64,000 nucleotides of DNA from Nitrosopumilaceae archaeon (GTDB lineage Archaea; Thermoproteota; Nitrososphaeria; Nitrososphaerales; Nitrosopumilaceae): positions 1 to 64,000 of the forward strand of contig CBDBCR010000004.1 in the NCBI GenBank assembly GCA_965203465.1, written 5' to 3'. The position numbers and the translations under genes were made by a program. Position 1 is the first letter of the stretch. Each line of letters starts with the position of its first letter. The notes under the pieces were generated by a model. That model saw only the letters and a list, made by a program, of their open reading frames with translations. It searched no databases and had not been told where the DNA came from. This document shows, one piece after another, positions 14,401 through 35,886 of the stretch.

Positions 14401-16585
14401 GTCGGGCCTGGCTTCGGACGGGACCGCCGTGGACGTATCGTTCGAATCCATGGAAGAGTTCTCCTTCGAAAGCCTGAGGATAAACGGCCGCGACGCGTTC
14501 GTCTCGGCGAGCAGCTCGACGGGGGTCACGGCGGGGTGGCTCGCGCGCGGCTCGGACGCCGACGGGCCGCTGGAGATAGCGCTGGGCATCACGGTGGACG
14601 GGATACGGGCGACGCTGGGCGCGCGGCACCTGACGGGCCCCAACGTGGCAGTCGACAACACGCCGCCGCAGCTCGAGTACGCCGCGCTGGTCGGGCAGCG
14701 CACCCTGGCGCTCTTTTACTCCGAGCCGGTGGAGACCTCGGCTCCGGACTATGCGTCGTTTTCGTACGGCTCTTCGTCGGCCCCGGCGGCCTCTTCGGTG
14801 CGCGGCTCGGGGACCGCCTCGGTCCTGGCGATGCTGGGCCCGTCCGACGATCCGATGGAGCCGGGCATGCGCATAATCTTTTCAGTCTCGGGCGTGGCAG
14901 ACAGGGCCGGAAACGCGCTGTCCAACGCCGGCGCGCAGTCGCTGGTTCCGGCGGACACGCGCGACGGGACGGTGGTGCTGCGTGACACCGCGCGCGACGG
15001 GCGCGCCCAGCTCGAGATTCCAGCCGATTCGCTGGTAAGGACGGTGGTGGCCCCGCAGCCCATAGCGCTGGACGCCTCGCTGCTGCCCAGCCCCGCGCCG
15101 GCCGACGCGCGCGTGGCCTCGGCCGGCGGAAGCACGGCCGAATTCGCCTCCGGCCTGTCGGTGCGCATCGGCTCGGTCACCGTGGTGCTGCCGGCAGGCC
15201 TCCAGGTGGGCGGGCTGCCCGCGGACCGCACGCTGCGCATGTCCGCGCCGAGTTCGGCCGTCCCGTCCGAGGACTATGTGACCGATTCCGGGCTGGATTC
15301 GTCGCGGTACGCCACCCTGGTGGAGGTGGGCGATCGGGCCGGGCGCGTCGAGCTGTCGCTGCCGGCCCGCATAGAGTTCGGCTCGCTCGAGGATCTGGTC
15401 TTCGTGGTGAGCGGCGGGCGGACCCTCGCGGTACAAGAGTGCTCGGGCCTGACGGCCTCGTCCCCGCTGGCCGCGGTGGCCGCGCATCTGGCCTCGCTGG
15501 AGGGCTCGGACCGGACCGACGCGGGCTCTTGCTACGTGCGGGAGGGCTCGGCTGTCTGGACCAACCACTTTTCGGCGTGGGGCACCGGATCCGCGCTGCA
15601 GCGCGGCGGCTCGGAGTGCGACGACTGCACCCCGCCGACGCTCGGGCTGGATTCGTACGGGACAAAGCTGGTCGACGGAGGCTTTTCGTACAACGGCCTG
15701 TCCTCGGACGTGGCGTACTTTTTCACCCCGTACCCGCTGATCGAATCCGAGGTGGGGAAACAAAACACCGTGGTACTAAAGATGTACGAAAACGAGGGGC
15801 CGGGCAACGTAGAGCACGTCTCGCTCGCATTCGGCCTGCGCTCCGGCGAGGTCATATCGGAGAGCAGGGCGGTCATAAACTACGACATTTCGTTCGACGG
15901 GAACGGCTCGGTCTCGGTCATAGATCCGGATGGCGCCATCGACATCGACACGCTGTCGGCCTCGCACGACGTGGCAGAATGCTCGCCGGGCTCTTCGCTC
16001 GAGTGCCTCTCCGTTACGATAACCCACATGTTCAGGGCCCCTCTCGAGTTCGACATCGTCGGGACCGACGTGTGGGACAGGGAGAGGAATTCGTGGCAAA
16101 ACTACTACAACCACGGCATACACGTCTCGGGCGAGCCGCTCGACCCGCAGCCCGGGGTGCCGGTCAACGGGGGCGATCTCGTGCTGTACCCGGTATCCTC
16201 GGACACCGACGTGATGATGGACGCCGGCGGCCACCTGTTCAAGCTCTCGCCGGAAGGCGACTACGTGCCTCTGTCCAACCAGTCGAGGCTGTACCACGAC
16301 ATCGACGAATCGATGTACCTGTACGACGGCGTCCCGATGCAGGGCTACGACCGCTCCGATCCGCAGTTCCGCGACTACCTGTACGCGCAGGTGCTCTCCG
16401 CCCAGCAAGTTTTGGATTCCATGATGCCTCCGTCAGAAGCAGGCGAGCCTGTCGCGGAACCGGCGGCGCCCGACCGCGGGGCCGCAGAGCAGCGCCTGCG
16501 CGAGGCCGTATTGGCCGAGCAGCGCAGGGCCGCGCTGCTCTTCGAGGAGCTGTTCGGGTACCAGCGCATCAACGGGCAGGACTGA
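5456..16585 (+). CDS. Giant (3709 aa) multidomain cell-surface protein / putative adhesin
   Basis: Signal peptide. More than ten ~125-aa beta-rich repeats (D-T-x-x-P-x-x-x-S-A-A-L-D-E-x-T-G-x-L-T-L-T-F-D-E-S-V). LVIVD-like repeats (IQIVNITDP, VQMIDITDP, VQIIDLSDP). An embedded type 1 solute-binding domain (TIGALAPLTG...VVGPATS...AYDAVRLL). C-terminal CDDCTPPTLGLD domain. Confidence 0.92.
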   Translation: MRTTAVWWLAVVIVLVAAASALPGAEATTPTLTSNAMDLRNDGTWAATLTLTFNTNVKVHTSVDDTLNDITAEGQKGASLQISGATVKVFFLPPAEETLRRADHDIDVSITSTAIRSTDTSTAYGGVTNSRATTTQDSVGPKVASAALDRDGGVLYIVTDESIAYGDYNVASANGGDARVQQIAGVGYVLQYGTSFENVTKYHVRDGATASGGVTMASSNNPSVHRTPTHEIRFTLSSSQLATVTGYTSPHLHMDAGALTGIGSQYQLDNAAVSRAENAAIAKAINYIPRATAAELTVATRALSVTFDESVTKSSGTFYIRNSATGAYAASTDVAGTLSTVSGTAGSATLSASDVTKVQGMATPHLHVNAGAVTDGGGADNLKKAVALTITSPGPALSGATLDENTRTLTLTMDRTAKSGDADVTQSNILIRDGAGTSGGTALTGSTVSSTGNSATVTLTLTPAQVATVTGYAAPHVYLKAGAVKNTSDQANVLSATSVALGIYPALESAVVDLNNFSTGSGQNTSYYAGKLALKFNVDVGVSTSDADTLPKITVREADNSPTLTLDTDASIISSSSTVEIGLSNAQKEAVRAMSGNLEVLIGANAFKSDTGSLALPAVGDGALSIPSASVTPDTTRPAITSVSLDGESGLLTLNFDELVQADPADINLSHMQLYYPQRGNFHLGDLLAGYAALSTPCVPAPCPQGGSAVTSSGDSTAVTVQLSEEHRKRAIALIDPQYWIQHQESIKDTSGNFTPSAVFGGASYTPDTNAPTLVTAAPNGPELDEGSGILTLTFSESVKDGSNVDLTQIFIAGSTAASGGTALSVLGDASEVTSTSDTDSAITVKLREPARQAAIGHTTPYVYFASGAVVDLSNQTLAASTAAAEITDTADDDPPTVESAALDEGTGILTITFNETVDVSSASSNGASFELREGASATDNLASEVVLSDGEIQSGQSDGLTLVFELDEDSRRGAIALSDPYLYVAAGAITDTITPTGNGIAAITQTTGGVEIADTDDDDGPEVEEAALNEGTGVLTITFDEQVDISSASSSGASFELRDGASAPSGQAGNVVLSDGEIRQGQSDGLEFVFELDEDSRQGAIALAAPYLYIAAGAIDDTIAPTGIAENLVGTVADITRDTVKPEVVSAALNEETGLLAITFDETVDVGSATAASFQIRDGPGSASGSAGEIVLSASEVQAQQSDGTALNFELSEASRRGAIDLGDPYLYVSADAINDAVTMANSGIAPNGIAVASADIVETADTTAPSLSTAALDEETGILTLTFDESVKDGQGVELDRIFIGDGAFSSGGEPLTGSTVTSSDATTDAAVTIGLTETLRKASIGYADPHVRLAEGAVRDVSDQDIAASGSSTIADTPDTTPPTISATDGPILHEPAGVLTVVFSESVQDGDDVDLTKIFVNDGPFTTGGTALTSSSGTSTMRSTEDTDSEILVTLHETLRLAVIAYTTPHLRFDSGAVKDLSGQAIVASASSTAIGEVTDLTPPVVSSAALNEETGILTLTFNESIDVSTADGAKFSLREGAGASAGSSGELVLSNAQVRPGQSDGTAFVFELSEASRLAAINLGDPRLYVSEGAIEDDSLNRIAANTAGIDVSQTLDATDPALLASGPGRPTLDEATGVLTLTFGESVKETADLAKIRIRDGPGTGGTALTGSEITSAHIDAVVAVDLSEALRKEAIGYADPHVVLESGAVVDLSDRGVAASAAQISDRPDLIAPSLSSAALDEATGILTLTFDESVKDGQTDLSKIRLNDGRFNAGGTALTGSAVTSTQDTDPLVTVQLTETLRQIAIGYATPHVRLESGAARDLSDQGAEASADSTAVSDAPDPSVQPRIRSAEAASAYTVRVSFNLPLTGAGPAGSWSVGDNAAVSVRVPTERVGTLIYVGDDMGQVPAVLSGDLVSVGGGYYRVTTADISARAVFYAYVTFGSPVEAGQSISYSQPPDPSGVADFDGRDLAAQSVQISGRSAYTPVETAAVSASLVRDGMAYSGEARKVVNYDPSYEYSVPAVTRFHSLWGVEDVATYTVDGDELVRALFSGSWETVRYDPRTETAHLSGRVGSPETAPAAVNLRGSVGTFAVAASASDDGIQIVNITDPYAPRQASYVADNRSPAYGCAFPTVHASLLLHCVNLAGTPGLSPLTELDGAKSVDIAKIGGRTYAVVAGKVDNGVQMIDITDPVNPQTADSADDTDWAAGIHPLVSPNDLAVFSSGGKTYVAVAAEYGGGSLGAVTVLDISDPALIRPGSLIEAGARDGDGREYDSVESPVSIDTFESGGSAYAIVSAYDAGFDSAVQIIDLSDPAAPKRASSITGQMLDRDGRAFADFAIETPGQVRAFSASGVPHALLAYSDTLQIVNLADPYAPRSAGAVTGGPGPFSGLLDVKGVDVVQAGGRVLAAATAGSGDGLFLIDITDPRSPQRLAYVRDGQTDPAGARVALAAPLGVSLSVIDGRLYASVASSQDRAEAPGQGGALAIFDLTEPAGLGSARTVTIGALAPLTGPVSPLGLHWEAAMKAAAADLNAELEAQGADWRAALDVRDTEGRPSEALAQLVSLDMLGVKAVVGPATSANLAQVKQYAEDRGITLISYGSTAPSLPEDNRQFGRALWDAVPTGAHSLAEADGIFRTAPPDALAGSFAAEQLAKAGKTHVTIIFRDDPWERALAEQIRDEFAVGSRTAALVPHQTPVADPAALAAAMAAAHKTGNSAVLTLEFSTDALTVISAAIGASSAPSASPAARALGTSQWFGMVGLDDAVSHPLTERGVELLRLAASGTSTLETILDRDRIRAVAAQLASSSPSAEAAPFRAAYSATVGLSASGPISAEAIIAQSERVIEFVSQTRYTLIEEVPDTDHPSFARVTGSISSMLADEHGQFGVPTYAAYDAVRLLGRAMTQSSSLEAGQLRSAIPAAADGHRGLAGDGTLDANGDLAAAEFELAQVRGGQAVKIPHYELPLTISRFEVSSRHASGLASDGTAVDVSFESMEEFSFESLRINGRDAFVSASSSTGVTAGWLARGSDADGPLEIALGITVDGIRATLGARHLTGPNVAVDNTPPQLEYAALVGQRTLALFYSEPVETSAPDYASFSYGSSSAPAASSVRGSGTASVLAMLGPSDDPMEPGMRIIFSVSGVADRAGNALSNAGAQSLVPADTRDGTVVLRDTARDGRAQLEIPADSLVRTVVAPQPIALDASLLPSPAPADARVASAGGSTAEFASGLSVRIGSVTVVLPAGLQVGGLPADRTLRMSAPSSAVPSEDYVTDSGLDSSRYATLVEVGDRAGRVELSLPARIEFGSLEDLVFVVSGGRTLAVQECSGLTASSPLAAVAAHLASLEGSDRTDAGSCYVREGSAVWTNHFSAWGTGSALQRGGSECDDCTPPTLGLDSYGTKLVDGGFSYNGLSSDVAYFFTPYPLIESEVGKQNTVVLKMYENEGPGNVEHVSLAFGLRSGEVISESRAVINYDISFDGNGSVSVIDPDGAIDIDTLSASHDVAECSPGSSLECLSVTITHMFRAPLEFDIVGTDVWDRERNSWQNYYNHGIHVSGEPLDPQPGVPVNGGDLVLYPVSSDTDVMMDAGGHLFKLSPEGDYVPLSNQSRLYHDIDESMYLYDGVPMQGYDRSDPQFRDYLYAQVLSAQQVLDSMMPPSEAGEPVAEPAAPDRGAAEQRLREAVLAEQRRAALLFEELFGYQRINGQD

Positions 16586-21820: not shown

Positions 21821-22554
21821 GGTTTGTCCATGCAGCACCTCTTGTACTTTTTGCCGGAACCGCAGGGGCAGGGGCCGCCCTTGGAGGGGTTTTTCCACCT
21901 GCGGGTTTCTTTGAACAGCTCCTGCGGATCTTTGGCTTCTGCCGCCTGCGGGTCCATCTGGCCCGAGTACATCTGCTCCAGGACGTCGATGCCGCTCACG
22001 TCGCTCGTTATGGTCCCGGTCAGAAGCAGGTTCTCGTAGTATTCGTACAGGTCGGGATCTATCAAGTCCAAGAGGCACTCGGCCAGCCACGTCCTGACCT
22101 CGAGGTCTTTCTCCTCTTTTACCGCCTCTTTGATCGCCGCGATCACAGCGGGCCTGCACTCGGGGTGGTCCAGGGCTATGCTGACCAGGGCGCGCCCGGC
22201 CGAGTGCCTAGGCCACATCTTGGCTTTGGTGTGGCGCACCAGGCCCGAGAGCGTCTCTACCGCCCCGGGCCCCGTGTGCGCCAGGACGCCGGGCAGATCT
22301 TGGTTGATCCAGTCGTCTTCGCTTTCGTCTTTGTGCACTTGCAGCAGGAACGAGTTTATGGCAAGCTGGGCCCGGTAGTGGCCCAGCAGGGCCAAGAGGT
22401 GGACGGCGCACCTGTTCCCTTCGCTGTCCGGGCCTTCGGTGGCCAGCCTGGCCAGCTCGGGGAACGCGGCGTCTCCCATACCTGTTATCTTTTGCACCGT
22501 TTCGGCATCGGTAGCAAAGCCGGATTTTGAGAGCTCGCGGATCGGGTCTTCCAC
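21814..22554 (-). CDS. DUF1186-like helical protein with C-terminal SEC-C motif (paralog 1)
   Basis: HEAT-like helices and C-terminal PCPCGSGKKYKRCC. Confidence 0.85.
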   Translation of the reverse strand: MEDPIRELSKSGFATDAETVQKITGMGDAAFPELARLATEGPDSEGNRCAVHLLALLGHYRAQLAINSFLLQVHKDESEDDWINQDLPGVLAHTGPGAVETLSGLVRHTKAKMWPRHSAGRALVSIALDHPECRPAVIAAIKEAVKEEKDLEVRTWLAECLLDLIDPDLYEYYENLLLTGTITSDVSGIDVLEQMYSGQMDPQAAEAKDPQELFKETRRWKNPSKGGPCPCGSGKKYKRCCMDKPF

Positions 22555-22877: not shown

Positions 22878-23612
22878 CTAATTCTTGCCCATGCAGCACC
22901 TTTTGTACTTTTTGCCGGAGCCGCAGGGGCAGGGGGCGCTCTTCGAGGGGTTTTTCCACCTGCGAGTCTCCTCGAACAGTTCCAGAGGGTCTTCCTGTTT
23001 CAAGTCGTGCGGGGGCAGCTCTCCGGCGTATATCTGCTCCAGGTTGTCCGCGCTGACGACGTCGCTCGTTATGGTTCCGGTGAGCAGCAGGTTTTCGTAG
23101 TATTCGTACAGGTCGGGATCCACCAAGTCCAGGAGGCACTCGGCCAGCCACGTCCTGGCCTCGGGGTCTTTTTCGCCCGCCACGGCCTCCTTGATCGCCT
23201 CGATCACGCCGGCTTTGTGCTCCGGGTGGTCAAGGGCCGTGCTGACCAGGGCGCGCCCGGCCGCGTGCCTCGCCCACGTGTCGGCTTTCGGGTGGCGCAC
23301 CAAGCCCGACAGCGCCTCTACGGCCCCGGGCCCCATGTGCGCCAGGACGCGGGGCAGGTGCTCGGTGACCCAGTCGTCATCGCCGTCTTTGTACACTTCG
23401 AGCAAGAACGAGTTTATGGCGAGCTGGGCCCGGTAGTGGCCCAGTACCGCCAGCAGGTGGACGGCCGACTTTGACCCCTCGCCGTCGGGGCCCTCGGTGG
23501 CCAGCCGGGCCAGATCCGGGAACGCGGAGTCTCCCATCTCTGTTATCTTTTCCACGGTTCCGGCGTCGGTTTCAAAGCCGGACTCTGCGAGCTCTCGGAT
23601 CGGGTCTTGCAC
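22878..23612 (-). CDS. DUF1186-like helical protein with C-terminal SEC-C motif (paralog 2)
   Basis: Collinear paralog of 21814-22554, including the shared upstream GGGTGATTAGTGTTTGGGCGG. GTG start at 23612. Confidence 0.85.
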   Translation of the reverse strand: MQDPIRELAESGFETDAGTVEKITEMGDSAFPDLARLATEGPDGEGSKSAVHLLAVLGHYRAQLAINSFLLEVYKDGDDDWVTEHLPRVLAHMGPGAVEALSGLVRHPKADTWARHAAGRALVSTALDHPEHKAGVIEAIKEAVAGEKDPEARTWLAECLLDLVDPDLYEYYENLLLTGTITSDVVSADNLEQIYAGELPPHDLKQEDPLELFEETRRWKNPSKSAPCPCGSGKKYKRCCMGKN

Positions 23613-23694: not shown

Positions 23695-24609
23695 TTGGAC
23701 GTGGACGAGGCCGCCGCGATCGCGGCGGTGGGCGAGGAGAAACTGCGCAAGTGCGGCGGGGCGTGGGGCGGAGGCCCCGCGATGGCCCCGTGGCTGCAGG
23801 ACGGCGGGCTGGCGGCCCTGGTTCCGGGAGGCAGAAAGTGGATGAACGTGTTCGTCTGCTTTGGCAAAGGCGCGCCGGAGGTCTGGTGCGACTGCAGGCA
23901 GGCGGGGCCGTACTGCTCCCACTCTGCAGTGCTGATCGCCTATGCGGCCGCCAACTCCGGCTGTCTGAAGGCGGTGCGCGCCGCAGAAGACGAGGGGATA
24001 CGCGAGGCGGCAAAAGCCGCGGAACCGCGGGACCGGAAGGCCCTGGCCGCGGCGGCCTCGGGCGAGGATCCCGCCGACCGGATGGGCCTGCACCTGCTGA
24101 AGCTGCCGCCGCGTGGCCTTCCCCCGCGCGGCATCGACTACGGGCGCGTGCTGGACATGGCGTACGTCAACATGTCGTCGGACTGCTTTCTGGAAGAGTT
24201 TGCCGACGTGGACTTTGGCGTGGCCGAGCGCGTGGCGGGCAGGTTCGCCGCCTCTGGGTACCTGCCGGAGGCGGCGCGGATATACTGCGTCGTGGCAGAG
24301 ACCATAGCGAAGAACGTCGCCATCACGGACGACTCCAACGCGCACTATTCCTACTCGCTAAAGACGGCGCTCGAGAAACTGCAGGGGTGCATGGTGAGCA
24401 GGGCGGGGAGGCCGAGGAAAAAGATGCCCGACGGCGAGCGCAAGAGGTGCATTTCCTGGCTGGCGCGGCGCGCGGCACTAGACGATCCGGACTTTTTCAC
24501 CGATGACTTTGAGGCGGCGCTCGATTCGGTGTGCGCCGCGCCGGGGGACGGGGAGTGGCGCGAGGAGCAAGAGAGGCTGCACTCCGAGCAGTCCGCCGCC
24601 CGGAGATAG
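23695..24609 (+). CDS. SWIM zinc-finger domain protein (paralog 1)
   Basis: CDCRQAGPYCSH (CxC-xn-CxH) followed by a helical domain with DDSNAHY. Confidence 0.8.
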   Translation: MDVDEAAAIAAVGEEKLRKCGGAWGGGPAMAPWLQDGGLAALVPGGRKWMNVFVCFGKGAPEVWCDCRQAGPYCSHSAVLIAYAAANSGCLKAVRAAEDEGIREAAKAAEPRDRKALAAAASGEDPADRMGLHLLKLPPRGLPPRGIDYGRVLDMAYVNMSSDCFLEEFADVDFGVAERVAGRFAASGYLPEAARIYCVVAETIAKNVAITDDSNAHYSYSLKTALEKLQGCMVSRAGRPRKKMPDGERKRCISWLARRAALDDPDFFTDDFEAALDSVCAAPGDGEWREEQERLHSEQSAARR

Positions 24610-24943
24610 TTTCGGGCCAGGCGCAGCCTCCTTTCGTAAACCGGGCCGTGATCGCACAGGTGCGAAATCTGCGGCGTGGGGGTCTTTTGAGCCGTTTGAT
24701 CGATTCTTCCGCGGTCTTTAACGTCGCGGCTTCCGTCGCCATTCCTATACGAGCGCACGGCTTCTCCCCGTCGGCCAGGGGGGCTCAACCGCGCTCTTTT
24801 CTTCGGTTGCCTCCGAACGGCTTTGCCCCGTGCAGCCGTGCCGTCCGGCAATTCGCGGACGCTTTGGGCGGCCCGGGCAGATTGCGTCGCCGGATCGCGC
24901 ACGGCCTATACTTAAAACGACGAGGACGAACCCGCAGAATACG

Positions 24944-26521
24944 ATGAATCGACTCGCGGGCCCCATGATCGCAGAGCATCTGCGCGAACAAAACCCGTGG
25001 TGGCTGGACGGGGCATGGGACGAGAAAGACGCGGAGCTGGGGGCGTGGCGCTCCTCGCCGCTGAGGTGCGATCCCCGGCTGCGCCGCGAGATAGAATACC
25101 ACTCGGAGCCGTCCAACACGACGGTCTATTCGGTGCGCGGCCCGCTCGGGGCGGGGAAGACCACCATGATAAAGATGCAGATCCGCGACCTGATTGCCGG
25201 CGGCGCCTGCCCGTGGAACGTGGCGTATTGCTCGTTCGATCTAGGCGGCGAGCCGGCCGACGTGGCCGAGGCGGTCAAGGCGTACCTTGAGCTGAGCCGC
25301 CGGCGCCGTGACGGGCGGCGCTCCTTCCTGTTCCTGGACGAGCTGTCGAACGTGCTGCATTGGCAAAAGGGGGTGAAATGGCTGGTGGACGCCGGCCTCT
25401 TGCGCGACTTCATGCCTCGGCCATCTCCTTGAGCCTGACGCAAGGTGAAATGGCTGGTGGACGCCGGCCTCTTGCGCGACTTTACGGTGGTGACCGCCGG
25501 TTCGACGTCTGCGGACATCAGGAAAGCGACAGAGCTGATGCCCGGCCGGAGGGGGAGGGTGGCGGGCGGCCACGACAGGATTCTGTTCCCGATGGGGTTC
25601 GGGGATTTTGCCTGCATGATGGACGGAGACGTGCGGGCGATACTGGAGGGCGGCCGGGGCGGGGACCGGCTCTTGGCCGGCCTGCTGGGGGGCGAGATAG
25701 GCGAGGCCGTCGACCGGCTGTCGGCGCACCGCCCCGAGCTGGACAGGCTGCTGGCAGAGTACGCGGTAACCGGGGGCTTGCCTGCCGTCGTGAACGCAAA
25801 GGCGGCGTCCGGCCGCATTCCGGACGGCGCGTACGCGGACTGTGTGGGCAGAATCGCCGAGCAGTGGAGGCAAGCGTCGGGGAGCGAGGCGCCGCTGGGG
25901 CGGCTCGCCGGCGCCGTGGCCGAAAGCGCGGGCCGCCCGTTCTCCTGGAGCCAACTCGCCAAGGACGCCTCTTTGGGGGGTGCGGGGGCCGCAGCAGAGT
26001 GCGTGCAGACGCTGCAAGACATGTTCGTCCTGCACGTGCTGCACGGGTACGACGCTGCGGGAATGCCCGATGCGGACGGCAGGAAAAAGGCGTACTTTGG
26101 CGATCCGTTCGTGCGCCATGCATTCGGCGCGCCCCGGGAGGGCGGGGGCTTTGGCGCGTCGCTGCGGCGCGCCGGCGGCGAGCCGGGAATGGGCAGCATA
26201 GTGGAGGGCGCCGTCTGCGACTGCCTGGTCCGGCTCGCGCTCCGGTCCGGCTGCAACTTCCTGCAGGATTATTCGGACAGCCTCTTTTACTGGCAGGACG
26301 GCGAGGGCCGGGAGCTGGATTTCGTGCTGCGCACCCCCGAATACATGGCGCCCGTCGATGTGCGGTTCCGGCAGACACTGGGCGGGCGGGATCTGGCCCC
26401 CGTCGCCCGGTTCTTGGACGAGGCCCATGCCGAAAAGGGCATCGTCGTCTCAAAGTCCGCGCTGGAGGAAAAGGCAGACTACGCGGTGGTGCCCGCGTGC
26501 ATCTTTCTGCTAGGCGCCTGA
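24944..26521 (+). pseudogene. AAA+ ATPase with DUF4143-like C-terminus, interrupted by a 72-bp duplication/insertion carrying a stop codon
   Basis: EQNPWW, GPLGAGKTT, FLDELS, then TAGS, TGGLP, KKAYFGDP, RELDFV. Both halves are in the same frame; TGA at 25430-25432 lies in the insert. Confidence 0.85.
25372..25482. repeat. Orphan 39-bp direct duplication flanking a 33-bp insert (72-bp period); candidate off-target spacer integration
   Basis: GGTGAAATGGCTGGTGGACGCCGGCCTCTTGCGCGACTT is identical at 25372-25410 and 25444-25482. Insert: CATGCCTCGGCCATCTCCTTGAGCCTGACGCAA. Confidence 0.9.
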
Positions 26522-26570: not shown

Positions 26571-27475
26571 CTGGATCTGGACTGGGATACGGCGGCCGCC
26601 GCGGTGGGCCGAAAAGCTGCGCGAGTGCGGCGGGGGCGTGGGGCGGCGGCCCGGTGATGGCGCCGTGGCTGCAGGAAGGCGGTCTGGAGGCGCTGGTTCC
26701 GGGCGGCGGGGACTGGATGACCGTGGCCGTCTCCGTCAAAAATGGCGTGCCGGAGGCGCGGTGCGACTGCGGGCAGGCGGGGCCGTACTGCTCCCACTCG
26801 ATAGTGGTCATGGCTTACGCGGCCGCCAACGCGGACTATCTGAGGGCGGTGCGCGCCGCAGAAGACGAGGGGATAAGGGAGGCGGCCAAAATCGCCGAGC
26901 CAGAGTACAGAGAGGCGCTGGCCGATGCGGCCCTGGGCGAGGATCCGGCGGACCGGTCGGGGCTGCGCCACATGCAGCTGACGACGCGGTGCCTCCCCCC
27001 GCGCGGCATCGACTACGGGCGCTCGCTCGACATGGGCTACGTCGGCCTGTCGGCGGGCTGCTTTCTGGAAGAGTCTGTCGACATCGACTTTGACACGGTG
27101 GGGCAGATCGCCAGGCGGTTCGCGGCCTCGGGGGACCTGGCAGAGGCGGCGCGGATATACTGCGTCGTGGCAGAGACCATAGCGAAGAACGTCGCCATTA
27201 CGGACGACTCCAACGCGCACTATTCGACGTCGCTCAAGACGGCGCTCGAGGACTTGGGCAGGTGCATGGTGGGCCGGGCGGGGCGGCCCAGGAAAAAGAT
27301 GCCCGCCGGCGAGCGCAAAAAGCGCATCTCTTGGCTGGTGCGGCGCGTGGCACTCGACGATCCGGACTTTTTCACCGAGGACTTTGAGGCGGCGCTCGAT
27401 TCGGTGTGCGTCGCGCCGGGGGACAGGGAGTGGAGGAGGGAACAGGAGAGGCTGCGCTCTGGATCGACTTTATGA
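26571..27475 (+). pseudogene. SWIM zinc-finger protein (paralog 2); 5' end frameshifted relative to paralog 1, ORF intact from 26654
   Basis: CDCGQAGPYCSH. The AVG / EKLREC / AWGGGP segments at about 26600-26655 fall in different frames. Could be sequencing error or use of a downstream start. Confidence 0.6.
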
Positions 27476-27729: not shown

Positions 27730-29829
27730 TCATGATTTTGTAGTGCCTGCTGGAACAAACAACCCCAATCCGAAGTGCTTTCCGTATCCTAGCGCCAACG
27801 GACCTGTGAACGGCTCTTTGAAATTTATCTCTAGAGAACGCCCGATGCTGGTTATGGGGCCTTTGCCGTTGCGCATTGTTTTGAATCGCCGGGTTGGCGT
27901 TTTTATGTTCCTGTGTGATACAACTACCAATTCTGAGTCGACGCGTACGCTTTCGACATCTCTTGACATCTCTTTCTCTATTTGGTCTTTGATTCCAGTT
28001 TTCTTTTTCATGTGCCACGGGGTGTAATACGGCGTTACCGACTTCCATTTTTGCGATCTTGCAAACAGGCTGCACTTCTGACCAAGTTCGACCATCCCGT
28101 CGAATCTATTGAAATGCATACGCATTCTCATACTGTTGTCGAACATGTCTGTGATCCCGCTTAGGGCCTGCATTTCTACACGCCCAAACCCGTATCTGGC
28201 GTACACCGCAACGTGGTCGATAAACCCGTCTGCATCTGCATCGTACGGCAACCACAACGCGTGACTGTGGTTGAGTGGCTCGCTGCTGTGGCCAGATATG
28301 GTGGCCGGTATGTTGGATCTCCCGAACAGCCGCTGAAACTTCGACATTGCGGCACGCCTCATAAGATCTGCCACATCCACAGTCTTCTCAATCGGGGGGC
28401 GATCTCCGAGCAGCGTAAAATATGCCGCTTTGGGCATTTCTCTCGGTGCAAACAAACCGAAACCGGCCTTCTTGTTATTCCCTATGGCGAACGCCCCCTT
28501 TCTGGCCGCCTTGAATTCTATCTCCAAGTGGGCGGTTCTGCCTGTTGCCCTGGGCAGGCCGTTCCAATAAGGCTCTTTTCTAGAATCCACAAACGCCACA
28601 TCGCCTGTTATGCCGTCCTTGCCCAGTGCAGCTATCGCGGCTTCGGCAACATCCGAGCGCAACTCCCGGTGAGCCCTGACGCGCAAGGCCTTGTCTGCCG
28701 CCGTCTTGTCTTTAGCAACGTTTTGTTCCTTGCCGACGTTCAGATCTACCGGCATTACCGAACACCACCGTCTGGACCATCCTTTGTACATCTTTTGCAC
28801 TGGATCGTTGGAATCTTCGAGGCGTATCTGGTACTCGACATCTCCTATCTTTACAAATTGGCCCGATACGTGGGAGAGAAACCTGTCCCTGACGCCTTCG
28901 TCAGTCTTGTGAGAGATCAGAAAAGCTATGCGCCGCACGATGCCGTCTGAATGTTGGCCCAATGTGGGCATGACGACCGCGTCTGCATGCAGCATGCTGT
29001 TTCCGTCGTACTCGTTTTTCATCCTGTAAAGCTGCTCGACTGCCAGGGGAATCTGGCTGCTGGTCAAGGCCCCTCTGTTTCCAGCAGCATCGAAAATCCT
29101 AAACACGTAGATGTCGGGAGATGGCGTGTGGGTTCTGTACCTCTGAGTGTGATATTTTCTGATCGGGGACGGCTTGTAAAAACTGTCTCCTGACACCCTG
29201 CTTTCAAACTCGCCATGGTGCCTTCTGGCGTCTTCTAGAAGGCCCTCGGCAGGGACTTCGATTCTTTCGCTCCCCTGCTCGTCTATCACGTAGCACTGCC
29301 CGTCGGCTGCGTGTGGGGATTCACGCACGCTGCCGTGCACTGCAACGGGGTCTATTCCCCATCCGAGGACCGGGATCTCTTTCGCGAGCTCGCACAGAGT
29401 TTCAATGCTATCTGGCTCCTCGTGTGGAATCTCCCAAACATACGTTGCCGTCTCTGTTATGTAGGGCTTCATTGTCTTGCCGGTGGTCATAGTTTTTTCA
29501 TCCTTGGGCTCCTTGCCTTCTGCGTACGCCTTGCTGATCACGTCGCCGTCGTTGTTGGGCACGAATATGGTGTATTCGCACCCCTTGCAACGGTGTGCGT
29601 AGATCTTGGGGGGCCCAAATTTCTCGAAAAATTTCAGAGCTTTGTCGCCCCTGTGGAACTCGACCCTTCCAGAGTTCTGGTGCAGCGCCGCGACGAACGC
29701 CAAGAAAAGCCTCCTGGGCGACGGCGGCCATTCCTTCCCGTGGTACCGTCCGAGCAGAAATCTGACTTGGAATGCGAGATATCTTGGTTTCTTAGCCATT
29801 TGCAGCTCTTGCGACATCGATTCCACCAC
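27730..29829 (-). CDS. csb2: Type I-G Csb2 (Cas5-Cas6 fusion), long form, module A
   Basis: EWPPSPRRLFLA N-terminus. Two G-rich loops: AIGNNKKAGFGLF and ALGYGKHFGLGLF. Confidence 0.88.
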   Translation of the reverse strand: MVESMSQELQMAKKPRYLAFQVRFLLGRYHGKEWPPSPRRLFLAFVAALHQNSGRVEFHRGDKALKFFEKFGPPKIYAHRCKGCEYTIFVPNNDGDVISKAYAEGKEPKDEKTMTTGKTMKPYITETATYVWEIPHEEPDSIETLCELAKEIPVLGWGIDPVAVHGSVRESPHAADGQCYVIDEQGSERIEVPAEGLLEDARRHHGEFESRVSGDSFYKPSPIRKYHTQRYRTHTPSPDIYVFRIFDAAGNRGALTSSQIPLAVEQLYRMKNEYDGNSMLHADAVVMPTLGQHSDGIVRRIAFLISHKTDEGVRDRFLSHVSGQFVKIGDVEYQIRLEDSNDPVQKMYKGWSRRWCSVMPVDLNVGKEQNVAKDKTAADKALRVRAHRELRSDVAEAAIAALGKDGITGDVAFVDSRKEPYWNGLPRATGRTAHLEIEFKAARKGAFAIGNNKKAGFGLFAPREMPKAAYFTLLGDRPPIEKTVDVADLMRRAAMSKFQRLFGRSNIPATISGHSSEPLNHSHALWLPYDADADGFIDHVAVYARYGFGRVEMQALSGITDMFDNSMRMRMHFNRFDGMVELGQKCSLFARSQKWKSVTPYYTPWHMKKKTGIKDQIEKEMSRDVESVRVDSELVVVSHRNIKTPTRRFKTMRNGKGPITSIGRSLEINFKEPFTGPLALGYGKHFGLGLFVPAGTTKS

Positions 29830-29839
29830 ACTCAGACAA

Positions 29840-30889
29840 TCATTCGTCTCCGTCTGCCTTTTTCTTATTTTTCTTTGACATCTTTTCTTTTATCGCCTTT
29901 TCTGCCTTTTTCTTCTCAAACCCTGCGCTTCTGTCTTTGCCCACGCCAAAGCCTTCCGCTGCCTTTTGCGCCCATTTTAGAACCTCGTCATGATCGAAGC
30001 TCACATCCTCGCGCTTCCCGTCAGGATACACAAGATTCCACTCTGGATCCCCTTTCTCTGGATCGCGTACGAGAAGGCACCCTTGTCTTAGATCCCATTC
30101 GCGTATAGAGGATGCCGCCACCATGGCTAGGCCCAAAACGTACCTCTGTAGGGCCTCTTGCTCGTTGTCGGATCTGATCTTCCTCAGAGCCGCAAAGTTC
30201 ACCACGACATCTCTTCGTATGGGGCCGCGGGCTATGATGCCTCCGTGCGTGCCGACTGCCGGAGCTTCGTTAAAGCCGATCTCCGACCTGGCGTCTTTTT
30301 CCTTTTTGTCTTTTGCCTCGTTTAGCAGATCCTCGTCGGTGTATTTTATCGGCGGAAAGTATTGTGCGGATCTGCTCAGCTCGTCCACATCGTACGCCCG
30401 TATTGTGGACGAGACTATGCGGGGAACCTTTACTTGCGTGTTCCTGGAATCCCACAGTCCAAACACCAGCGATGTGGGGGCTATCTTGGCAACGGCCGAC
30501 GCGTTTCCTGCTTTTAGAGATTTCAGGGCTTCCGTAAGATCCTCGCTGATCGTAGAATGCCTGAGCAGGGCGTCCGCTGCCCTGTGGCCCACCTCGCACA
30601 AGTTCACCGCGTAGTCTGCCGCACTTATCACTACTTGGGGGACAAGCTTGCTGTACGGTTCTTTCATAAAAACGGGCTCCATCCTGTTCGCCTGCGAGCC
30701 TACGCTGTCTACCAAACAAGTCTGCGTCCCGTCTTTCATGGCGTCTATGCAATATGGGCTGTTGGAATCTTTCCCGCCAGCGAATGTGGGGGGAAAGAAC
30801 GGCGAATCCTTGCCTTCTACTGGAATCAAGTACTCCCTCAAGACTAGCGCAGAAGCGTCTCCGCTTATCCACTTGTCCGGCTCTAGCAT
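29840..30889 (-). CDS. cas7: Type I-G Cas7 (Csb1/GSU0053 family), module A
   Basis: FFPPTFAG, LVDSVGSQANRME, GHRAADA, PTSLVFGLWDSR, LRQGCLL. Confidence 0.92.
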   Translation of the reverse strand: MLEPDKWISGDASALVLREYLIPVEGKDSPFFPPTFAGGKDSNSPYCIDAMKDGTQTCLVDSVGSQANRMEPVFMKEPYSKLVPQVVISAADYAVNLCEVGHRAADALLRHSTISEDLTEALKSLKAGNASAVAKIAPTSLVFGLWDSRNTQVKVPRIVSSTIRAYDVDELSRSAQYFPPIKYTDEDLLNEAKDKKEKDARSEIGFNEAPAVGTHGGIIARGPIRRDVVVNFAALRKIRSDNEQEALQRYVLGLAMVAASSIREWDLRQGCLLVRDPEKGDPEWNLVYPDGKREDVSFDHDEVLKWAQKAAEGFGVGKDRSAGFEKKKAEKAIKEKMSKKNKKKADGDE

Positions 30890-31626
30890 GGCGTGTCTGC
30901 CTCGGACGCTTCTATAAATGTCTTTTTTTGACCGCTCTTTCTAGTACGGGCCCTGAAGTGGCGCGTGCCTGGAAACTCCAGAGCGCCTGCCGCTGCGGCC
31001 TTGGCTACGATGTTTGGCAGCGGCACCGCCCACGCATTGTAGCAATACTCTTCCCGTGATCTTCTGCTGTTGTGCCAGCCGTATGCCTGTACCCCCAAGT
31101 ACGCGAAAAACTCCACCACCGGAAACGATCTCCGCTTCATCTTCTGCTCGTTTAGAGAAAACCCCACATCCAGAGTGTTCCACGAGGTGTGTGTATCAAA
31201 CCCCGACGGCACATCGATCACGCTGCTGCCCCACAACTCTTTTGCGTCGCTCGTTTCGTGCACCTTCATGTGTTCTATCCACCTGCCTACCACGTCGTGG
31301 GATTTTTCCTGTCCTGCAAACAGCTTTATTTCCGGCCTGTTGTCAAAATGTTCCCAGAAATCTAGACGCGTGTTTATTTTTCCTCCAAGGTGAATGGGAG
31401 ATGCGCTTTCATCGCCGGCCGGTATGTCGATGCGGGACGCCTCGTTGACTATTGCCTGTATGGGATCTTTTTGTTCTGTTTCCAACACGAATTCGCCTCC
31501 GTCAAAACTCCCGCGAACTGCGCCAAGAACGCGATCTACAGCGTGCAGTATGCCACAGCACGCAAAGAAATGACCGGGATTGAGCAAGTCTACCGGCAAT
31601 CTGGTCTCGATCGCATTCCCGTTCAT
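30883..31626 (-). CDS. cas8: Type I-G small Cas8 (Csb3/GSU0052-like), module A
   Basis: PVDLLNPGHFFACCG, KLFAGQ, LDVGFS, VEFFAYLG. ATG overlaps the cas3 stop (ATGA). Confidence 0.8.
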   Translation of the reverse strand: MNGNAIETRLPVDLLNPGHFFACCGILHAVDRVLGAVRGSFDGGEFVLETEQKDPIQAIVNEASRIDIPAGDESASPIHLGGKINTRLDFWEHFDNRPEIKLFAGQEKSHDVVGRWIEHMKVHETSDAKELWGSSVIDVPSGFDTHTSWNTLDVGFSLNEQKMKRRSFPVVEFFAYLGVQAYGWHNSRRSREEYCYNAWAVPLPNIVAKAAAAGALEFPGTRHFRARTRKSGQKKTFIEASEADTPC

Positions 31627-34136
31627 CGTGACTTCCCCACATTGTTTGACGCACTCCAGTCGGCGCCTCTCAAAAGTCCCTCCAACCACGCCAGCCCGAA
31701 CGCGCCGAATCTTTTTTGCAAGTTTGCGTATCGCTCGGCCACGCGGGTTAGTATCTGATCGTCACCGTCCAAGTTCATGGCTTTGTTGTCCCTTGCCTCT
31801 GGTCTGAAGCACGGCCTTGCCCATCCGTGGTGGGAGGCCACCAGGTGGAGGACCAGATCAGCTTCATCGCCAAGTTCGTCGCGGGGCATTTTCTCAAGCA
31901 TGTGCGTGGAGCACAGTTCATGCCGAAACCTGCCCATGTTGAGTGGACTCTTCCGGCTAGCGGTTTTTGCAAGGGGCATTTTGTCGGGTTCTACATGCAT
32001 CCACGCTTGCCACTTCTCGTTTTCTTTTCCTTTGTCGTGGTACCCCGCCGCTGTTATTATGGCATTTTTCACGGCCTCTGGCATATTTGAGTACGGCTTT
32101 ACCATGTCTGCAGCTTTTTCTTTCACGTCTTTTAGATGATCGTCCAGATTCTGTTCTACCAACGTGCGCGACTGCTGTCCAATCCTCCTTGCATAGTATC
32201 GGATCTTTGTATCTGGAGAGTCCTCGTCTGGCTTTGTGATGTCGATCTCGTACACTAGCTTCATTTTAGAGCTGTCGAGCCATTTGCCGATCTCACGCAC
32301 TTTCGGCAAACCCCCGATCTGTTTTATCGCATCCTGCGCATCGTCCATCTTCTCTACCAAAACTCTGCACCGGGAATACCCGCTCAGACCTTCGGTGTCT
32401 TGTCCGTTGCTCGAAATGTCTGCGACATCTCTCACTGGCGAGGTTTCTCCAGGACTCAGGAACCCGCGCTTGTCGAGGCCGCCAAAATCCGTGGGCAACA
32501 CAACAGTCGAGAAATACAGATCTTCTTTTTTGACATCTGACGTTGTCTGCTTTTTACACTGCCCGTCGTCTTTTATTACCATTATCTGCCCGCTTCTACT
32601 TTTTAGAAACTTGTACACTTCGTCAGTGTACTCGCGTAGCGTCTCTTTGGGCAGGATCCTGTAGTTGTCGAACACATCACCAGCATCATCATCATTTTTC
32701 AAGTACTTTGCGTCTTCTCTCCAACACACGTACGTGTCTGGTCTGGCCTTGTCTTCGTCCCCACGTAGCCAAAACCTCACATGAGGCCTTGACCGGTATT
32801 CTCTATATATGGAAGTCATGGACCATGAATCCAGCAAGTCTTTTGTCAATGGCTGGGTTTTAGGCTTGGACGCAAACATCCTGTCCATGTCGCCTTCGCC
32901 CAGACCTTCCAACACCTTGCTTAGGGCCTGCGGACTTCCATCGTGCATATTACGTTCAACCAGAAACTTGACCGTCTCTGCCGCAGATCCTTTTTCGTTG
33001 CCGTTATAGATTAGAGTGGCGGTGGCTTTTCGGTCTTTCCCTCCAGTGCGATTGAGGCGCCCAAGCCTCTGTATGAGAGAATCCAGCGTTGTGGCATCGC
33101 ATACCATGTGATCCGCATCAAAGTCTGCGCCCACCTCGCCGGCGGATGTGGCCACCATGTACGATGGCTCTCCGCCGTGTTTGCCTAGGAAAGCCTTGTA
33201 TGCTTTTTTCTCGGACAACCTGTCTCGTTCAAACCCGCGTATAGTGCCGGTCAAAACCACCACCTCGTGTTCTTTCTCTAGGTTTTTTGATATTTTTAGG
33301 GCGTCTTTGGGACTCCTTACGTAGATCATGACTCTTCCAGGTTTTGACTCTGCGTGTCTTGCTATCTCGTCTGCCACGTTGACTTGCGGGGGAATTTTCT
33401 TCAACTCCAGCTTCTTCACCGCCCTATACCTGTCTTCCACTACAGCGTTGTGCATGTCGTCGCTCCCCAACCTTATGATGTTGTTGCCCTTTCTGTGTTG
33501 TGTAGCTGACATGAAGAGTGTTCTTGGTGGGTACAGACGATCGGCGTTTTTCACGTTGGATATGTCCTCCACATCTCTAAGAAGATTTTCCATGGCTGGC
33601 GATAGATGTGTCTCGTCCAGAACTAGGAGCGAATCCTGTCCCAAGAGTCCGGCGTAAAAAGATCTGACCTTTCTTCCTACTCCGTACCCAGAGAACAAGA
33701 GGCGGCTTCCTATCATGTCTATGGTGCCTATTATTATGGCCGGCATGTGTGGCTCTTCCAGCCACTTTCTGTTGTCTTCCAGGCCTCCGCCTCCTCGGAG
33801 TTTGCTTATGTTCAGGCTCCCGATCTTGGATCTGTAGTTGTTGTCTGCTTCTATTTTTTTGCGCAGTTTGTCTGCTTCATCGGAAGCCTGATCAACTATC
33901 ACGCGCCTATCCACAATATAGACAAGTCTTGTAGGCACGTGATCATGTCCGCGAATTCTTGTATGTGTTAAGGCAAGCATCCATATGTGCATGATCGATG
34001 TTTTGCCCAGACCTGTGGGAATGTCCATCGTATCGGGAATGTCGCCTTTTACGAGCATGTCGAACATCCTTTGTTGCCATGGGTATGGCGCATGCCCGGT
34101 TATGGCCTCGAAATCCTCGGCAAAGCCCATCACCAA
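31623..34136 (-). CDS. cas3: Type I-G Cas3 (helicase with C-terminal HD nuclease), module A
   Basis: PYPWQ, IPTGLGKT, DETH, QRLGRLNR; C-terminal LDDH...YHDKGK...RHE...SHHG...AD. Confidence 0.95.
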   Translation of the reverse strand: MVMGFAEDFEAITGHAPYPWQQRMFDMLVKGDIPDTMDIPTGLGKTSIMHIWMLALTHTRIRGHDHVPTRLVYIVDRRVIVDQASDEADKLRKKIEADNNYRSKIGSLNISKLRGGGGLEDNRKWLEEPHMPAIIIGTIDMIGSRLLFSGYGVGRKVRSFYAGLLGQDSLLVLDETHLSPAMENLLRDVEDISNVKNADRLYPPRTLFMSATQHRKGNNIIRLGSDDMHNAVVEDRYRAVKKLELKKIPPQVNVADEIARHAESKPGRVMIYVRSPKDALKISKNLEKEHEVVVLTGTIRGFERDRLSEKKAYKAFLGKHGGEPSYMVATSAGEVGADFDADHMVCDATTLDSLIQRLGRLNRTGGKDRKATATLIYNGNEKGSAAETVKFLVERNMHDGSPQALSKVLEGLGEGDMDRMFASKPKTQPLTKDLLDSWSMTSIYREYRSRPHVRFWLRGDEDKARPDTYVCWREDAKYLKNDDDAGDVFDNYRILPKETLREYTDEVYKFLKSRSGQIMVIKDDGQCKKQTTSDVKKEDLYFSTVVLPTDFGGLDKRGFLSPGETSPVRDVADISSNGQDTEGLSGYSRCRVLVEKMDDAQDAIKQIGGLPKVREIGKWLDSSKMKLVYEIDITKPDEDSPDTKIRYYARRIGQQSRTLVEQNLDDHLKDVKEKAADMVKPYSNMPEAVKNAIITAAGYHDKGKENEKWQAWMHVEPDKMPLAKTASRKSPLNMGRFRHELCSTHMLEKMPRDELGDEADLVLHLVASHHGWARPCFRPEARDNKAMNLDGDDQILTRVAERYANLQKRFGAFGLAWLEGLLRGADWSASNNVGKSR

Positions 34137-34216
34137 TCTGATTCTGGCCCATTTATTATATTTTTACTGGGATTGGGCGCTTTGCTGATGCGAACTATGG
34201 GGTCGTGCTTTCCTAT

Positions 34217-34296
34217 TAGAGTCTATGCGTAAACGCGCCGGTTGGGGTTTTCTAGGCACGGATCTGCGAGATTCGGGAGATTACGCATAACCTCTA
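34217..34296. mobile_element. 80-bp MITE-like element, copy 2
   Basis: TAGAGTCTATGCGTAA...TTACGCATAACCTCTA; TA at both ends; same orientation as copy 1. Confidence 0.8.
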
Positions 34297-34323
34297 TTAA
34301 ACGACACAGATCGTTTGGCACGC

Positions 34324-34574
34324 CATACACCGGAGTCGCAACTTAATAGTTGCGGAAGGAGGCACGACCTCCGGAAAAAAGCCCTGGGCTAGGGCGCTTC
34401 AATGGGGCCGCAACCTGATAGTTGCGGAATGGTGCACTCGGCCAATCACGTGGCCAAGGAACTTCAGCAGCTTCAATGGGGCCGCAACTTGATAGTTGCG
34501 GACGCCGCCCGGCACTGTGCCAATTCCGGCACCGAGCGGCTTCAATGGGGCCGTAGCATAACAGCTGCGGAAGA
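34324..34574 (-). CRISPR. Degenerate mini-array: 4 repeats, 3 spacers
   Basis: Repeat variants start at 34324 (left part decayed), 34396, 34470 and 34539 (stem variant GCCGTAGCATAACAGCTGCGG). Same family as the main array. Confidence 0.9.
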
Positions 34575-34818
34575 AGCGTGCCAACGATGTCAATTCAGTG
34601 TCCGTTATCGGCTTGTAAGTGTTCACGTCATCCAGACCCGTTTGCCAGTACTTTGGCATCTCTGCTATATATTCTGACTCAGGTTCCACCTGGTATGCAC
34701 TCACCCCCTCCAGCTCGATCGTGCCTAGCGATTAGATCTCGTGTGTGAGCCCGTGCCTAGCAGAACGAGATTCGTGGGGGGAGCTGAGTGCATACTTCCA
34801 CCTGTCGTGACGCGCGTG

Positions 34819-34850
34819 AAAAAAACACACTCTTGGTCAAGAGAGTGTGT
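34819..34850 (-). terminator. Hairpin plus oligo-T terminator downstream of cas module B
   Basis: ACACACTCT-loop-AGAGTGTGT stem adjoining an A7 run (T7 on the minus strand), about 40 bp after the stop at 34891. Confidence 0.6.
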
Positions 34851-34890
34851 GAAAACCTGACGCAGGCCGACGTGTAAGTTTTCTGCGTCG

Positions 34891-35886
34891 TTATCGGACG
34901 CCGAGCCCGTGCCCCGCAGGCGTTCCTGCGCCCACCGTGCGAAATTTTCCGTCGCTAAATATTCGCGCCACGATCACATCTAGCGCACCGCAGTCGCGCA
35001 TAGATGCGGCAAGTCGTGCTATGTTTTTTGCACGATCATCTGTGTCTGCTACGGGATCATTGCTCGCGCGCTTGTGCCTTTGTGGGGGGTATTGCGCATC
35101 AGCAATCTGCCTGAGCTCTTTCATCCGCAAAAGAACGCGCACTGCGTCCAGCGGCAACGGCTTCTCCCAGATCGGCCAAGCTACCGCCTCTCCGGTCGAT
35201 CCGCATCCCGTGGTGCTGAGCCCCCCGCGTTCCGGCGCCGACGTGAACTCTGATATTCCGAGTGCGATAAGCGGCTCCGCCCCGGTCACGGGCGCTCTGA
35301 ACCCCACGGGGTCGGATGCGCGCAGGGCATGCTTCCGTCGCTCGCGCCAGTCAAGTCTAAATGGCCGCAGGCTCGAGCTGCCTTGCTGCTTTTCTTCCGG
35401 ACGATCCCATGTCTTGAACAGTCCTCTTCGTATGAAGTCTGCCATGCCTTCCTCGCGCATGCCCAAGGCGGCGTCGAAATCCCTGCCAAAGTACTGTTGC
35501 CCTGCCCCGAGTGTAAGGCACAAGGCACCCGGCCTCATCGTGCCGTCTTTGGTAAGGGCGCCGTCCGACAACAGGGACGCCACAACATCGCGGTCTGTTC
35601 TAGACAGAATGCTTGGAAGCTCTGAAGGCTCGATGCCGTTGACGTTCTTTTTTCCGATCTGCATTTTCTTGCCCAGCGAGGAAATGCCGCTGGCCGCGGC
35701 ATCGCACACCGCATCGACGCTCTGATCCCCGCACGTTAGCAGGGACGCCTTGCCTTGCGACCATTTCGACTCGGGCTTCCAACAGGGCACGGACTTTTCA
35801 AGAGCCCTGAGCAACCCGATCAGCGCCAGCACTGCTGCCAGACTGTCCTGCTGTAGGCCGCGGAGCGCGATCTCTTGGCGACTCAC
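34891..35886 (-). CDS. Type I-G Cas8-like protein (small, cas3-adjacent family), module B
   Basis: LRGLQQDSLAAVLALIGLLRAL, GAGQQYF, FRLDWRERRKHALRASDP, AWPIW. Start overlaps the cas3 stop. Confidence 0.7.
   Translation of the reverse strand: MSRQEIALRGLQQDSLAAVLALIGLLRALEKSVPCWKPESKWSQGKASLLTCGDQSVDAVCDAAASGISSLGKKMQIGKKNVNGIEPSELPSILSRTDRDVVASLLSDGALTKDGTMRPGALCLTLGAGQQYFGRDFDAALGMREEGMADFIRRGLFKTWDRPEEKQQGSSSLRPFRLDWRERRKHALRASDPVGFRAPVTGAEPLIALGISEFTSAPERGGLSTTGCGSTGEAVAWPIWEKPLPLDAVRVLLRMKELRQIADAQYPPQRHKRASNDPVADTDDRAKNIARLAASMRDCGALDVIVARIFSDGKFRTVGAGTPAGHGLGVR

Follow-up and report, generated by a model that had tools for sequence, protein, structure and literature searches.

The window analysed here, a stretch of 64,000 nucleotides (nt) of DNA from an archaeon of the family Nitrosopumilaceae (contig CBDBCR010000004.1 of assembly GCA_965203465.1, positions 1 to 64,000), contains a gene for an AAA-family ATPase which is interrupted by a short insert lying between two exact copies of a piece of the gene itself. 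[quoted passage not shown] Misfires of this sort number at least five in the genome, the ATPase scar included. The sequence-only reading of this DNA had already proposed a recent knock-out by the CRISPR adaptation machinery, and that proposal is now supported by the length of the duplicated unit, by four further scars, by an insert at one of them which is a copy of the organism's own DNA, by an empty allele, and by homologues which are not split. The host is an ammonia-oxidising archaeon, to judge from its archaeal amoA (1.9e-115), its Rpb1-type RNA polymerase gene and its relatives with small genomes, and it is represented in sequencing runs from sponge and marine metagenomes.

Structure of the disrupted gene

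Positions 25372-25410 and 25444-25482, both on the plus strand like the other parts of the gene, are identical at 39 of 39 nt, with the identity ending exactly at the left edge, and the distance from the start of one copy to the start of the other is 72 nt, which leaves an insert of 33 nt (25411-25443) between them. The 39 nt of each target copy are an apparent length, and the true duplication is probably 36-37 nt; the insert is in the same way the core of a stray spacer which was probably 36 nt long, with at most 3 nt common to the copies. The insert thus comprises 33 unique nt, or 36 nt if the three shared nucleotides are counted, and the native spacers of the organism have 34-39 nt. An insert of 36 nt had been described earlier, and the spacer-like size stands, but three of those nucleotides (CTT) belong to the duplicated copy as well. 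Identity between the insert and its two flanks is 0.18 and 0.30, so that the insert is unrelated to the sequence around it.

The reading frame which begins at the ATG at 24944 runs through ...WQKGVKWLVDAGLLRDF, continues into the insert with MPRPSP, and ends there at a TGA (25430-25432), which is the sole stop of the ATPase frame. Two fragments result. The N-terminal fragment (24944-25432) holds the Walker A and B region within an AAA_14 domain (Pfam, 6.4e-10) and ends in ...LLRDF followed by MPRPSP and the stop; the C-terminal fragment (25445-26521), which carries a DUF4143 domain (5.7e-9), opens at a GTG within the second target copy and is otherwise undamaged. When 72 nt are removed in silico, a single open frame is recovered (24722-26449 in the emptied coordinates, with 501 codons from the ATG), which bears out the earlier claims that this deletion restores a continuous frame and that the only stop lies in the insert. 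The break falls about 20 residues after Walker B (FLFLDE), and both fragments should therefore be inactive; to judge from this position the split ATPase most likely has no activity.

The gene is bracketed by paralogous stretches (23758-24057 with 26633-26932, and 21947-22246 with 23008-23307) which are 81% identical over 300 nt. These lie in open reading frames (ORFs) without a Pfam match, one of which has a CxC...CxH pattern, and a SEC-C-motif/HEAT protein is encoded nearby.

Duplications of the same form elsewhere in the genome

The whole genome of 2.26 Mb in four contigs was scanned for exact direct repeats which lie outside the arrays, are at least 24 nt long and have a period of 64-82 nt, and 15 such repeats were found: five are clean duplications with an unrelated insert, nine belong to coding repeats of a tandem or periodic kind, and the remaining one, of 27+46 nt, is unclear. 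A filter on flank similarity keeps all five of the clean cases, and their inserts are unrelated to one another. A second scan, which tolerated mismatches and covered periods of 50-99 nt, has its peak at 72 nt with six matches, against one or two at every other period.

The five scars are here called E1 to E5. E1 (C1:421176; copies of 41 nt, insert of 33 nt, unit of 74 nt) is upstream of the gene for an HtrA-like protease. E2 (C1:818675; 38+34 nt, unit of 72 nt) is in a small ORF of unproven reality, which has no match in 30 relatives, and E3 (C3:596454; 40+31 nt, unit of 71 nt) is found where the RNA polymerase A gene has its stop codon. E4 lies within the window (5305-5413, minus strand) and is intergenic; its copies of 37 nt (5305-5341 and 5377-5413) enclose an insert of 35 nt (5342-5376) in a unit of 72 nt, and 14 nt separate its end from a TTATATA box, which in turn lies upstream of the GTG (5457) belonging to a gene for a giant protein with a signal peptide. 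E5 is the ATPase scar (window 25372; 39+33 nt, unit of 72 nt), and it is the only one of the five which clearly disrupts a known gene. Two of the five are on the cas-bearing contig C4, which with 78,276 nt makes up 3.5% of the genome (binomial P ~0.011), and this clustering may hint that off-target integration is biased in cis or locally.

Three further places look like possible older or partial scars and were not counted: C3:745578 (31/36, unit of 72 nt; contributed by the mismatch-tolerant scan), C3:214394 (exact copies of 27 nt, unit of 73 nt) and C2:103879 (about 32/36, unit of 78 nt).

The resident integrase and its native array

A complete type I-G CRISPR-Cas system is encoded in the window, all of it on the minus strand, and the participation of an integrase is supported by the presence of full-length Cas4g/Cas1g and of Cas2 beside an array of 51 spacers with identical repeats. 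The Cas4g/Cas1g fusion integrase gene (49412-51061) scores 686.8 bits with NF049935, for which the cut-off is 560, and is followed by cas2 (49123-49407; 94 amino acids), by the leader of the main array (48954-49122), whose transcribed strand ends in ...GGGCAGG adjoining the first repeat (CCTTCC...), and by the main array itself (45112-48953), which has a repeat of 36 nt and 51 spacers between perfect repeats and is read on the minus strand, as judged by gene order. A ATTGAAGC-like handle is the usual ending of such repeats. The spacers are 34, 35, 36, 37, 38 and 39 nt long in 3, 14, 21, 9, 3 and 1 cases respectively, so that native units of repeat plus spacer measure 70-75 nt, with a mode of 72 nt (21/51).

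Two type I-G effector modules (27730-41384), composed of Cas3g, Cas8g2, Csb1/Cas7g, Csb2 and a Cas3-extension protein, complete the system, and a mini array with four partly degenerate copies of the main-array repeat (34324-34574) is situated between them. NCBIfam matches above the cut-off were obtained for cas4g_cas1g and, twice each, for cas3_GSU0051, Csb1 and Csb2; the Cas8g2 match is below its cut-off (94.5 vs 125). At 41501-45043, in the interval that separates the cas genes from the main array, lies an MmeI/Eco57I-like restriction-modification fusion of type IIG (PADLOC REase_MTase_IIG, 3.9e-47).

Several irregularities were observed in the arrays. The leader-proximal end of the main array (48782-48953, plus-strand order) is made up of a full repeat, then the 2 nt TA, a second repeat which deviates in its last 6 nt, a stretch of 62 nt, and the full leader-adjacent repeat. 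The stretch of 62 nt contains a repeat-like remnant with an internal deletion, and this end of the array looks like the result of an earlier faulty integration or of a deletion at the real site; the possibility that the stretch is a duplicate of the leader was rejected, as local alignment recovers nothing beyond the repeat part of 30 nt. The array also contains two adjoining spacers, with their repeats, in exact duplicate (45219-45326 and 45796-45903; 180 nt, 100% identical), which is a segmental duplication inside the array. One native spacer (48462-48496) matches the host chromosome at 35 of 35 nt (C1:333631-333665; L014:4001-4035), in an ORF of 470 amino acids with a NucS_C domain which adjoins an HNH endonuclease gene, and this spacer is either self-targeting or directed against an integrated element. 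Elsewhere in the genome, the decayed arrays L005 (C1:324600-326600) and L006 (C1:357000-358600) belong to the main-array repeat family in the opposite orientation, and their repeat copies have internal deletions (leaving 33-34 nt) or 4-5 substitutions.

Junctions, target sites and sources of the inserted DNA

The apparent duplications of E1 to E5 exceed the repeat length of 36 nt in every case, by 5, 2, 4, 1 and 3 nt. The identity between adjacent native repeats extends by chance over 0.59 nt on average (n=51), and the extensions at the scars, at 1-5 nt, are significantly greater (Mann-Whitney p=3e-4). What these additional nucleotides represent is indicated by E1, because the source of its insert can be located: the insert matches C1:116470-116506, 305 kb away, at 36 of 37 positions, and the match extends 2 nt into each of the duplicate copies (CC on one side and GG on the other). 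The piece inserted at E1 is, as far as the alignment indicates, a 37-nt copy of distant chromosomal DNA, with the length of a normal spacer, and the unit of 74 nt less a spacer of 37 nt therefore leaves a true duplication of 37 nt rather than 41 nt. Because all five duplications exceed 36 nt and the E1 protospacer overlaps its copies in this manner, the extra nucleotides can be read as microhomology of 1-5 nt. The simplest description that the data suggest combines a target duplication 36-37 nt long with normal spacers of 35-38 nt, the ends of which are identical over 1-5 nt to the target nucleotides beside the cuts. The alternative is a longer stagger combined with spacers of 31-35 nt, and no such short spacers were found among the 51 native ones (34-39 nt by count); here two deviations would have to offset each other by chance.

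In certain respects the sites themselves may resemble the native integration site. One flank of each is G-rich, as is the end of the leader. The native leader ends in GCAGG, and the same pentamer precedes the copies at E1, which begin with CGAGCG, and at E3, which begin with CCTCCA and thus like the repeat (CCTTCC); the corresponding pentamers are GAGGG at E2, GCGGG at E4 and GGGGG at E5. The best leader-end pentamer scores of the five sites sum to 20 of 25, compared with a random mean of 14.75 (P=0.003), and the occurrence of exact GCAGG at two sites has P=0.0035. When a pseudo-repeat is laid out from the first duplicated base, GGCC falls at repeat positions 23-26 in three of the five sites (E2, E4 and E5; P ~0.01, for a motif chosen post hoc), and in E5 the match in register is CGGCC at positions 22-26. 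This register partitions E5 as 36+36, which matches the partition made in the sequence-only reading.

Searches were also made for the sources of the other inserts. At up to three mismatches the ATPase insert occurs only once in the window and in the genome, and none of 100 shuffles of it finds a match. The inserts of E2, E3 and E4 have 0 exact matches in viral_contigs, and that of E4 has 0 in metagenome_contigs as well; the scans of these two collections were for exact matches only and would miss diverged protospacers. A spacer derived from the organism's own DNA would be dangerous in a working array, but the self-derived spacer of E1 should be harmless if no CRISPR RNA is produced at its site, and may therefore perhaps survive there.

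The copying of a distant site into E1, with 2-nt identities at both junctions, is also what might be expected of a templated insertion during replication or repair (template switching, resembling microhomology-mediated break-induced replication), in which a 3' end would jump by microhomology, copy about 33 nt and return upstream of its point of departure, so that insert and duplication would both arise with no Cas protein involved. The excess of junction identity at all five scars, with 1-5 nt, over the mean of 0.59 nt for pairs of native repeats would be explained by this process too. Template switching gives no reason, however, for the units of all five scars to measure 71-74 nt and so to coincide with native units of 70-75 nt, and neither a spacer length of the inserted pieces nor the presence of leader-end pentamers at the junctions is predicted by it. 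As an explanation of the scars it is accordingly very unlikely.

Homologues, the empty allele and the reality of the insertion

A database search with the C-terminal fragment returned five homologues of 496-504 amino acids, each of which has both Pfam domains. The sequence-only reading had suggested alignment with homologous ATPases, which would reveal whether the gene is naturally split at this point; all five (5/5) are uninterrupted across the site, where they read ...KWLVDAG.L...TV.... The homologue P0001, of 501 amino acids, is 97% identical to the N-terminal fragment and 95% identical to the C-terminal one, and no further stops are present, in agreement with the earlier observation that the remainder of the gene shows no decay. 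The insertion appears recent because the rest of the gene is undamaged.

The intact P0001 matches seven PADLOC models of PDC-S01, a candidate defence system (best 3e-14), and on the strength of these matches the ATPase may be described as a PDC-S01-like candidate defence protein, with its role in defence being a candidate label only. The gene lies within a defence island together with the type I-G system and the type IIG restriction-modification gene. There were 0 matches to the ATPase in PDB, and thus no solved relative.

An allele without the insertion is present in one contig of run X1 (a marine metagenome, study P1) and in one contig of run X4 (a sponge metagenome, study P2), in both of which position 25371 is joined to position 25444 and exactly 72 nt are skipped. 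The record from X4 is 607 nt long with 13 other letters, and comes from a strain which is about 98% identical. Because an allele shorter by exactly 72 nt occurs in contigs of other strains and studies, the insertion can be taken as derived and strain-specific. A DNA search for the ATPase locus in 30 relatives gave only two short matches, of 30-33 nt, and thus no orthologous empty site at the level of species.

The existence of both alleles, inserted in this genome and empty in X1, X4 and P0001, raises the question of whether they are the two states of a functional switch, in which the ATPase would be toggled by insertion and by an exact excision between the copies of 39 nt. Perfect direct repeats of 39 nt placed 33 nt apart could indeed recombine or slip, and would then restore the gene exactly. 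The two alleles, however, are in different samples and are about 2% different elsewhere (13 letters in 607 nt), and they therefore represent different strains and not one toggling population. The forward step, moreover, would be a rare and random misintegration which could not be repeated with the same spacer and is not programmable, and among the other scars E1, E3 and E4 are intergenic or at the end of a gene and E2 is in an ORF whose reality is unproven. A switch is for these reasons highly improbable.

A further concern is that the 72-nt unit might be an artefact of assembly or consensus which is absent from the cells. The contigs of run X9, which with X10 is source-like, break inside the 39-mer, at 25401 and 25453, the listed contigs of run X11 end at 25323 and resume at 25448, and none of the contigs listed for X9 spans the whole structure. 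Breaks are, however, to be expected where graphs built from 31-mers meet a repeat of 39 nt; X9 and X10 contain 0.98 of the sampled 31-mers of 24944-26521, and the contigs of X9 match on each flank with no differing letter. Four more scars, in other contigs too, of which one carries DNA copied from a distant place, would also be hard for an assembler to produce, and an artefact is very unlikely. The insertion of a transposon or insertion sequence, which likewise consists of an inserted piece flanked by a direct duplication, is excluded because the five inserts are unrelated and without coding capacity, the ATPase insert being unique in the genome and no element recurring in copies; the duplications known from transposases are, in addition, much shorter than 37-41 nt.

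Proposed mechanism of off-target integration

In the explanation favoured here, Cas4g/Cas1g-Cas2 would have missed the leader-repeat junction and placed its prespacer, about 36 nt long, in the ATPase gene. Two staggered strand transfers would be made some 36-39 base pairs apart, this distance being set by the "ruler" used for the repeat, and repair of the resulting gaps would duplicate the intervening stretch on both sides of the spacer, to give target copy, spacer and target copy in a 72-nt unit of the same form as repeat plus spacer. The insert would bring a TGA into the frame and split the AAA+ core just after Walker B. We infer that Cas4/1-Cas2 catalysed the formation of the scars, and the choice of sites would have been guided by the G-rich flank which resembles the leader end and, in three cases, by GGCC in the register of the repeat. 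Disintegration normally removes off-target half-sites. The identity of 1-5 nt between spacer end and target flank may help to fix the off-target product: the joined 3' end could pair in place of the displaced target end, and disintegration would therefore be hindered.

A number of observations weigh against this explanation and have to be set beside the evidence for it. The ruler is not exactly kept, since the duplications appear to be 37-41 nt long, and that of E1 is truly at least 37 nt, against a repeat of 36 nt. The leader-end pentamer of E5, the scar from which the analysis started, matches at only 3 of 5 positions; the identity of the five pseudo-repeats to the whole repeat is not significant (69 compared with a random 64.6, P=0.15), and neither is a comparison of 9 nt of the leader over the scars (P=0.10). 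No protospacer was found for the ATPase insert, which has 0 exact matches in viral_contigs, 0 in metagenome_contigs and none in its own genome. The empty allele, finally, is known from assembled contigs of other samples and not from reads of the source sample. Off-target integration by Cas4/1-Cas2 is nevertheless the explanation which we hold with considerable confidence.

A broader proposition, which is tentative and on balance doubtful, is that misfires of this kind are frequent enough to shape the genome of this archaeal lineage, with spacers, including self-derived ones which a real array would make lethal, being placed at G-rich sites which resemble the leader end, and with integration being favoured when the last 1-3 nt of the prespacer ends equal the displaced nucleotides of the target. 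The joined end could then pair with the opposite strand, which would shield the product of strand transfer from disintegration. If this were true, then gene knock-outs would arise naturally by off-target integration, and so would the seed units of new arrays.

Repetitive sequence in the remainder of the window

The window has several other repetitive features. The giant ORF downstream of E4 (5457-16585) has 3745 codons from stop to stop, a start which resembles a signal peptide (VRTTAVWWLAVVIVLVAAASA) and internal repeats of about 330-380 nt, and its first 600 residues have no Pfam match. At 1020-1364 there are 5.5 tandem copies of a unit of 63 nt which are 99% identical. A tandem family of TPR-repeat paralogues, with units of about 1150-1200 nt, occupies 51157-56314 and 59142-63846, and within the latter interval, at 63163-63282, is an acidic (GAC/GAA-rich) repeat with periods of 9 to 39 nt, part of which is near-perfect (95% at period 39).

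Relation to known cases of off-target integration

The natural rate and cost of off-target integration have so far been largely inferred, and the process has been shown mainly in overproducing Escherichia coli and in vitro. According to passages that cite Nivala, Shipman & Church 2018, off-target integration of spacers in E. coli that overproduces Cas1-Cas2 creates neo-CRISPR units. The events in this type I-E system reportedly needed overproduction and were found as rare reads, and effects on fitness through insertions into genes were anticipated; a passage of a citing preprint speaks of circumstantial evidence of neo-CRISPR integration in two other species. The scars in the present genome are like those of E. 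coli, so far as these passages describe them, in that a spacer outside an array is joined to a target duplication of repeat length, so that a mini array with two "repeats" results, and in that the sites may resemble the native junction. They are unlike them in that they have become fixed, at a density of five per 2.26 Mb, in an uncultivated ammonia-oxidising archaeon from the wild whose Cas4/Cas1 fusion is of type I-G, and in that one of them breaks a gene whose intact allele is found in sister populations, one contains a self-derived spacer, and the duplications appear 1-5 nt longer than the repeat.

A second point of comparison is provided by Pyrococcus furiosus, whose Cas1-Cas2, according to passages of Grainy et al. 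2019 (PMC6698737), integrates in vitro at non-CRISPR sites that share scattered features of the repeat and junction, with several weak determinants spread over about 30 bp. The scattered and weak candidate determinants of the present sites resemble these, and the targets described in those passages are plasmids in vitro, with no natural scars or knock-outs among what they describe. Off-target acquisition is also named, in one citing passage, as one proposed origin of isolated arrays.

The present genome adds to such work a natural record, which consists of five fresh scars and includes one clear knock-out whose ancestral allele is still in circulation. Units of two repeats and one spacer far from cas genes have reportedly been explained by off-target integration in a survey by Shmakov et al. 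2020, in which arrays are said to have been collected with array finders across databases, without empty alleles, a self protospacer or a disrupted gene. In the literature covered on off-target or ectopic spacer integration, from which subscription papers largely fall out, there was no natural knock-out with a surviving empty allele and no wild genome with multiple scars.

The single self-derived spacer shows that the naive sampling of self DNA is tolerated outside an array. For type I-G Cas4/Cas1-Cas2 the scars also supply clues to site choice which can be tested in vitro, namely GCAGG at the leader end, GGCC in register and microhomology at the junctions, the last of which is possibly a new mechanistic feature. 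Genome scans for a duplication of repeat length combined with an insert of spacer length can, in addition, measure the fidelity of integrases in uncultivated microbes. Set beside the systems in which off-target integration was described before, the finding is a natural, multi-event and gene-disrupting type I-G case of a known phenomenon.

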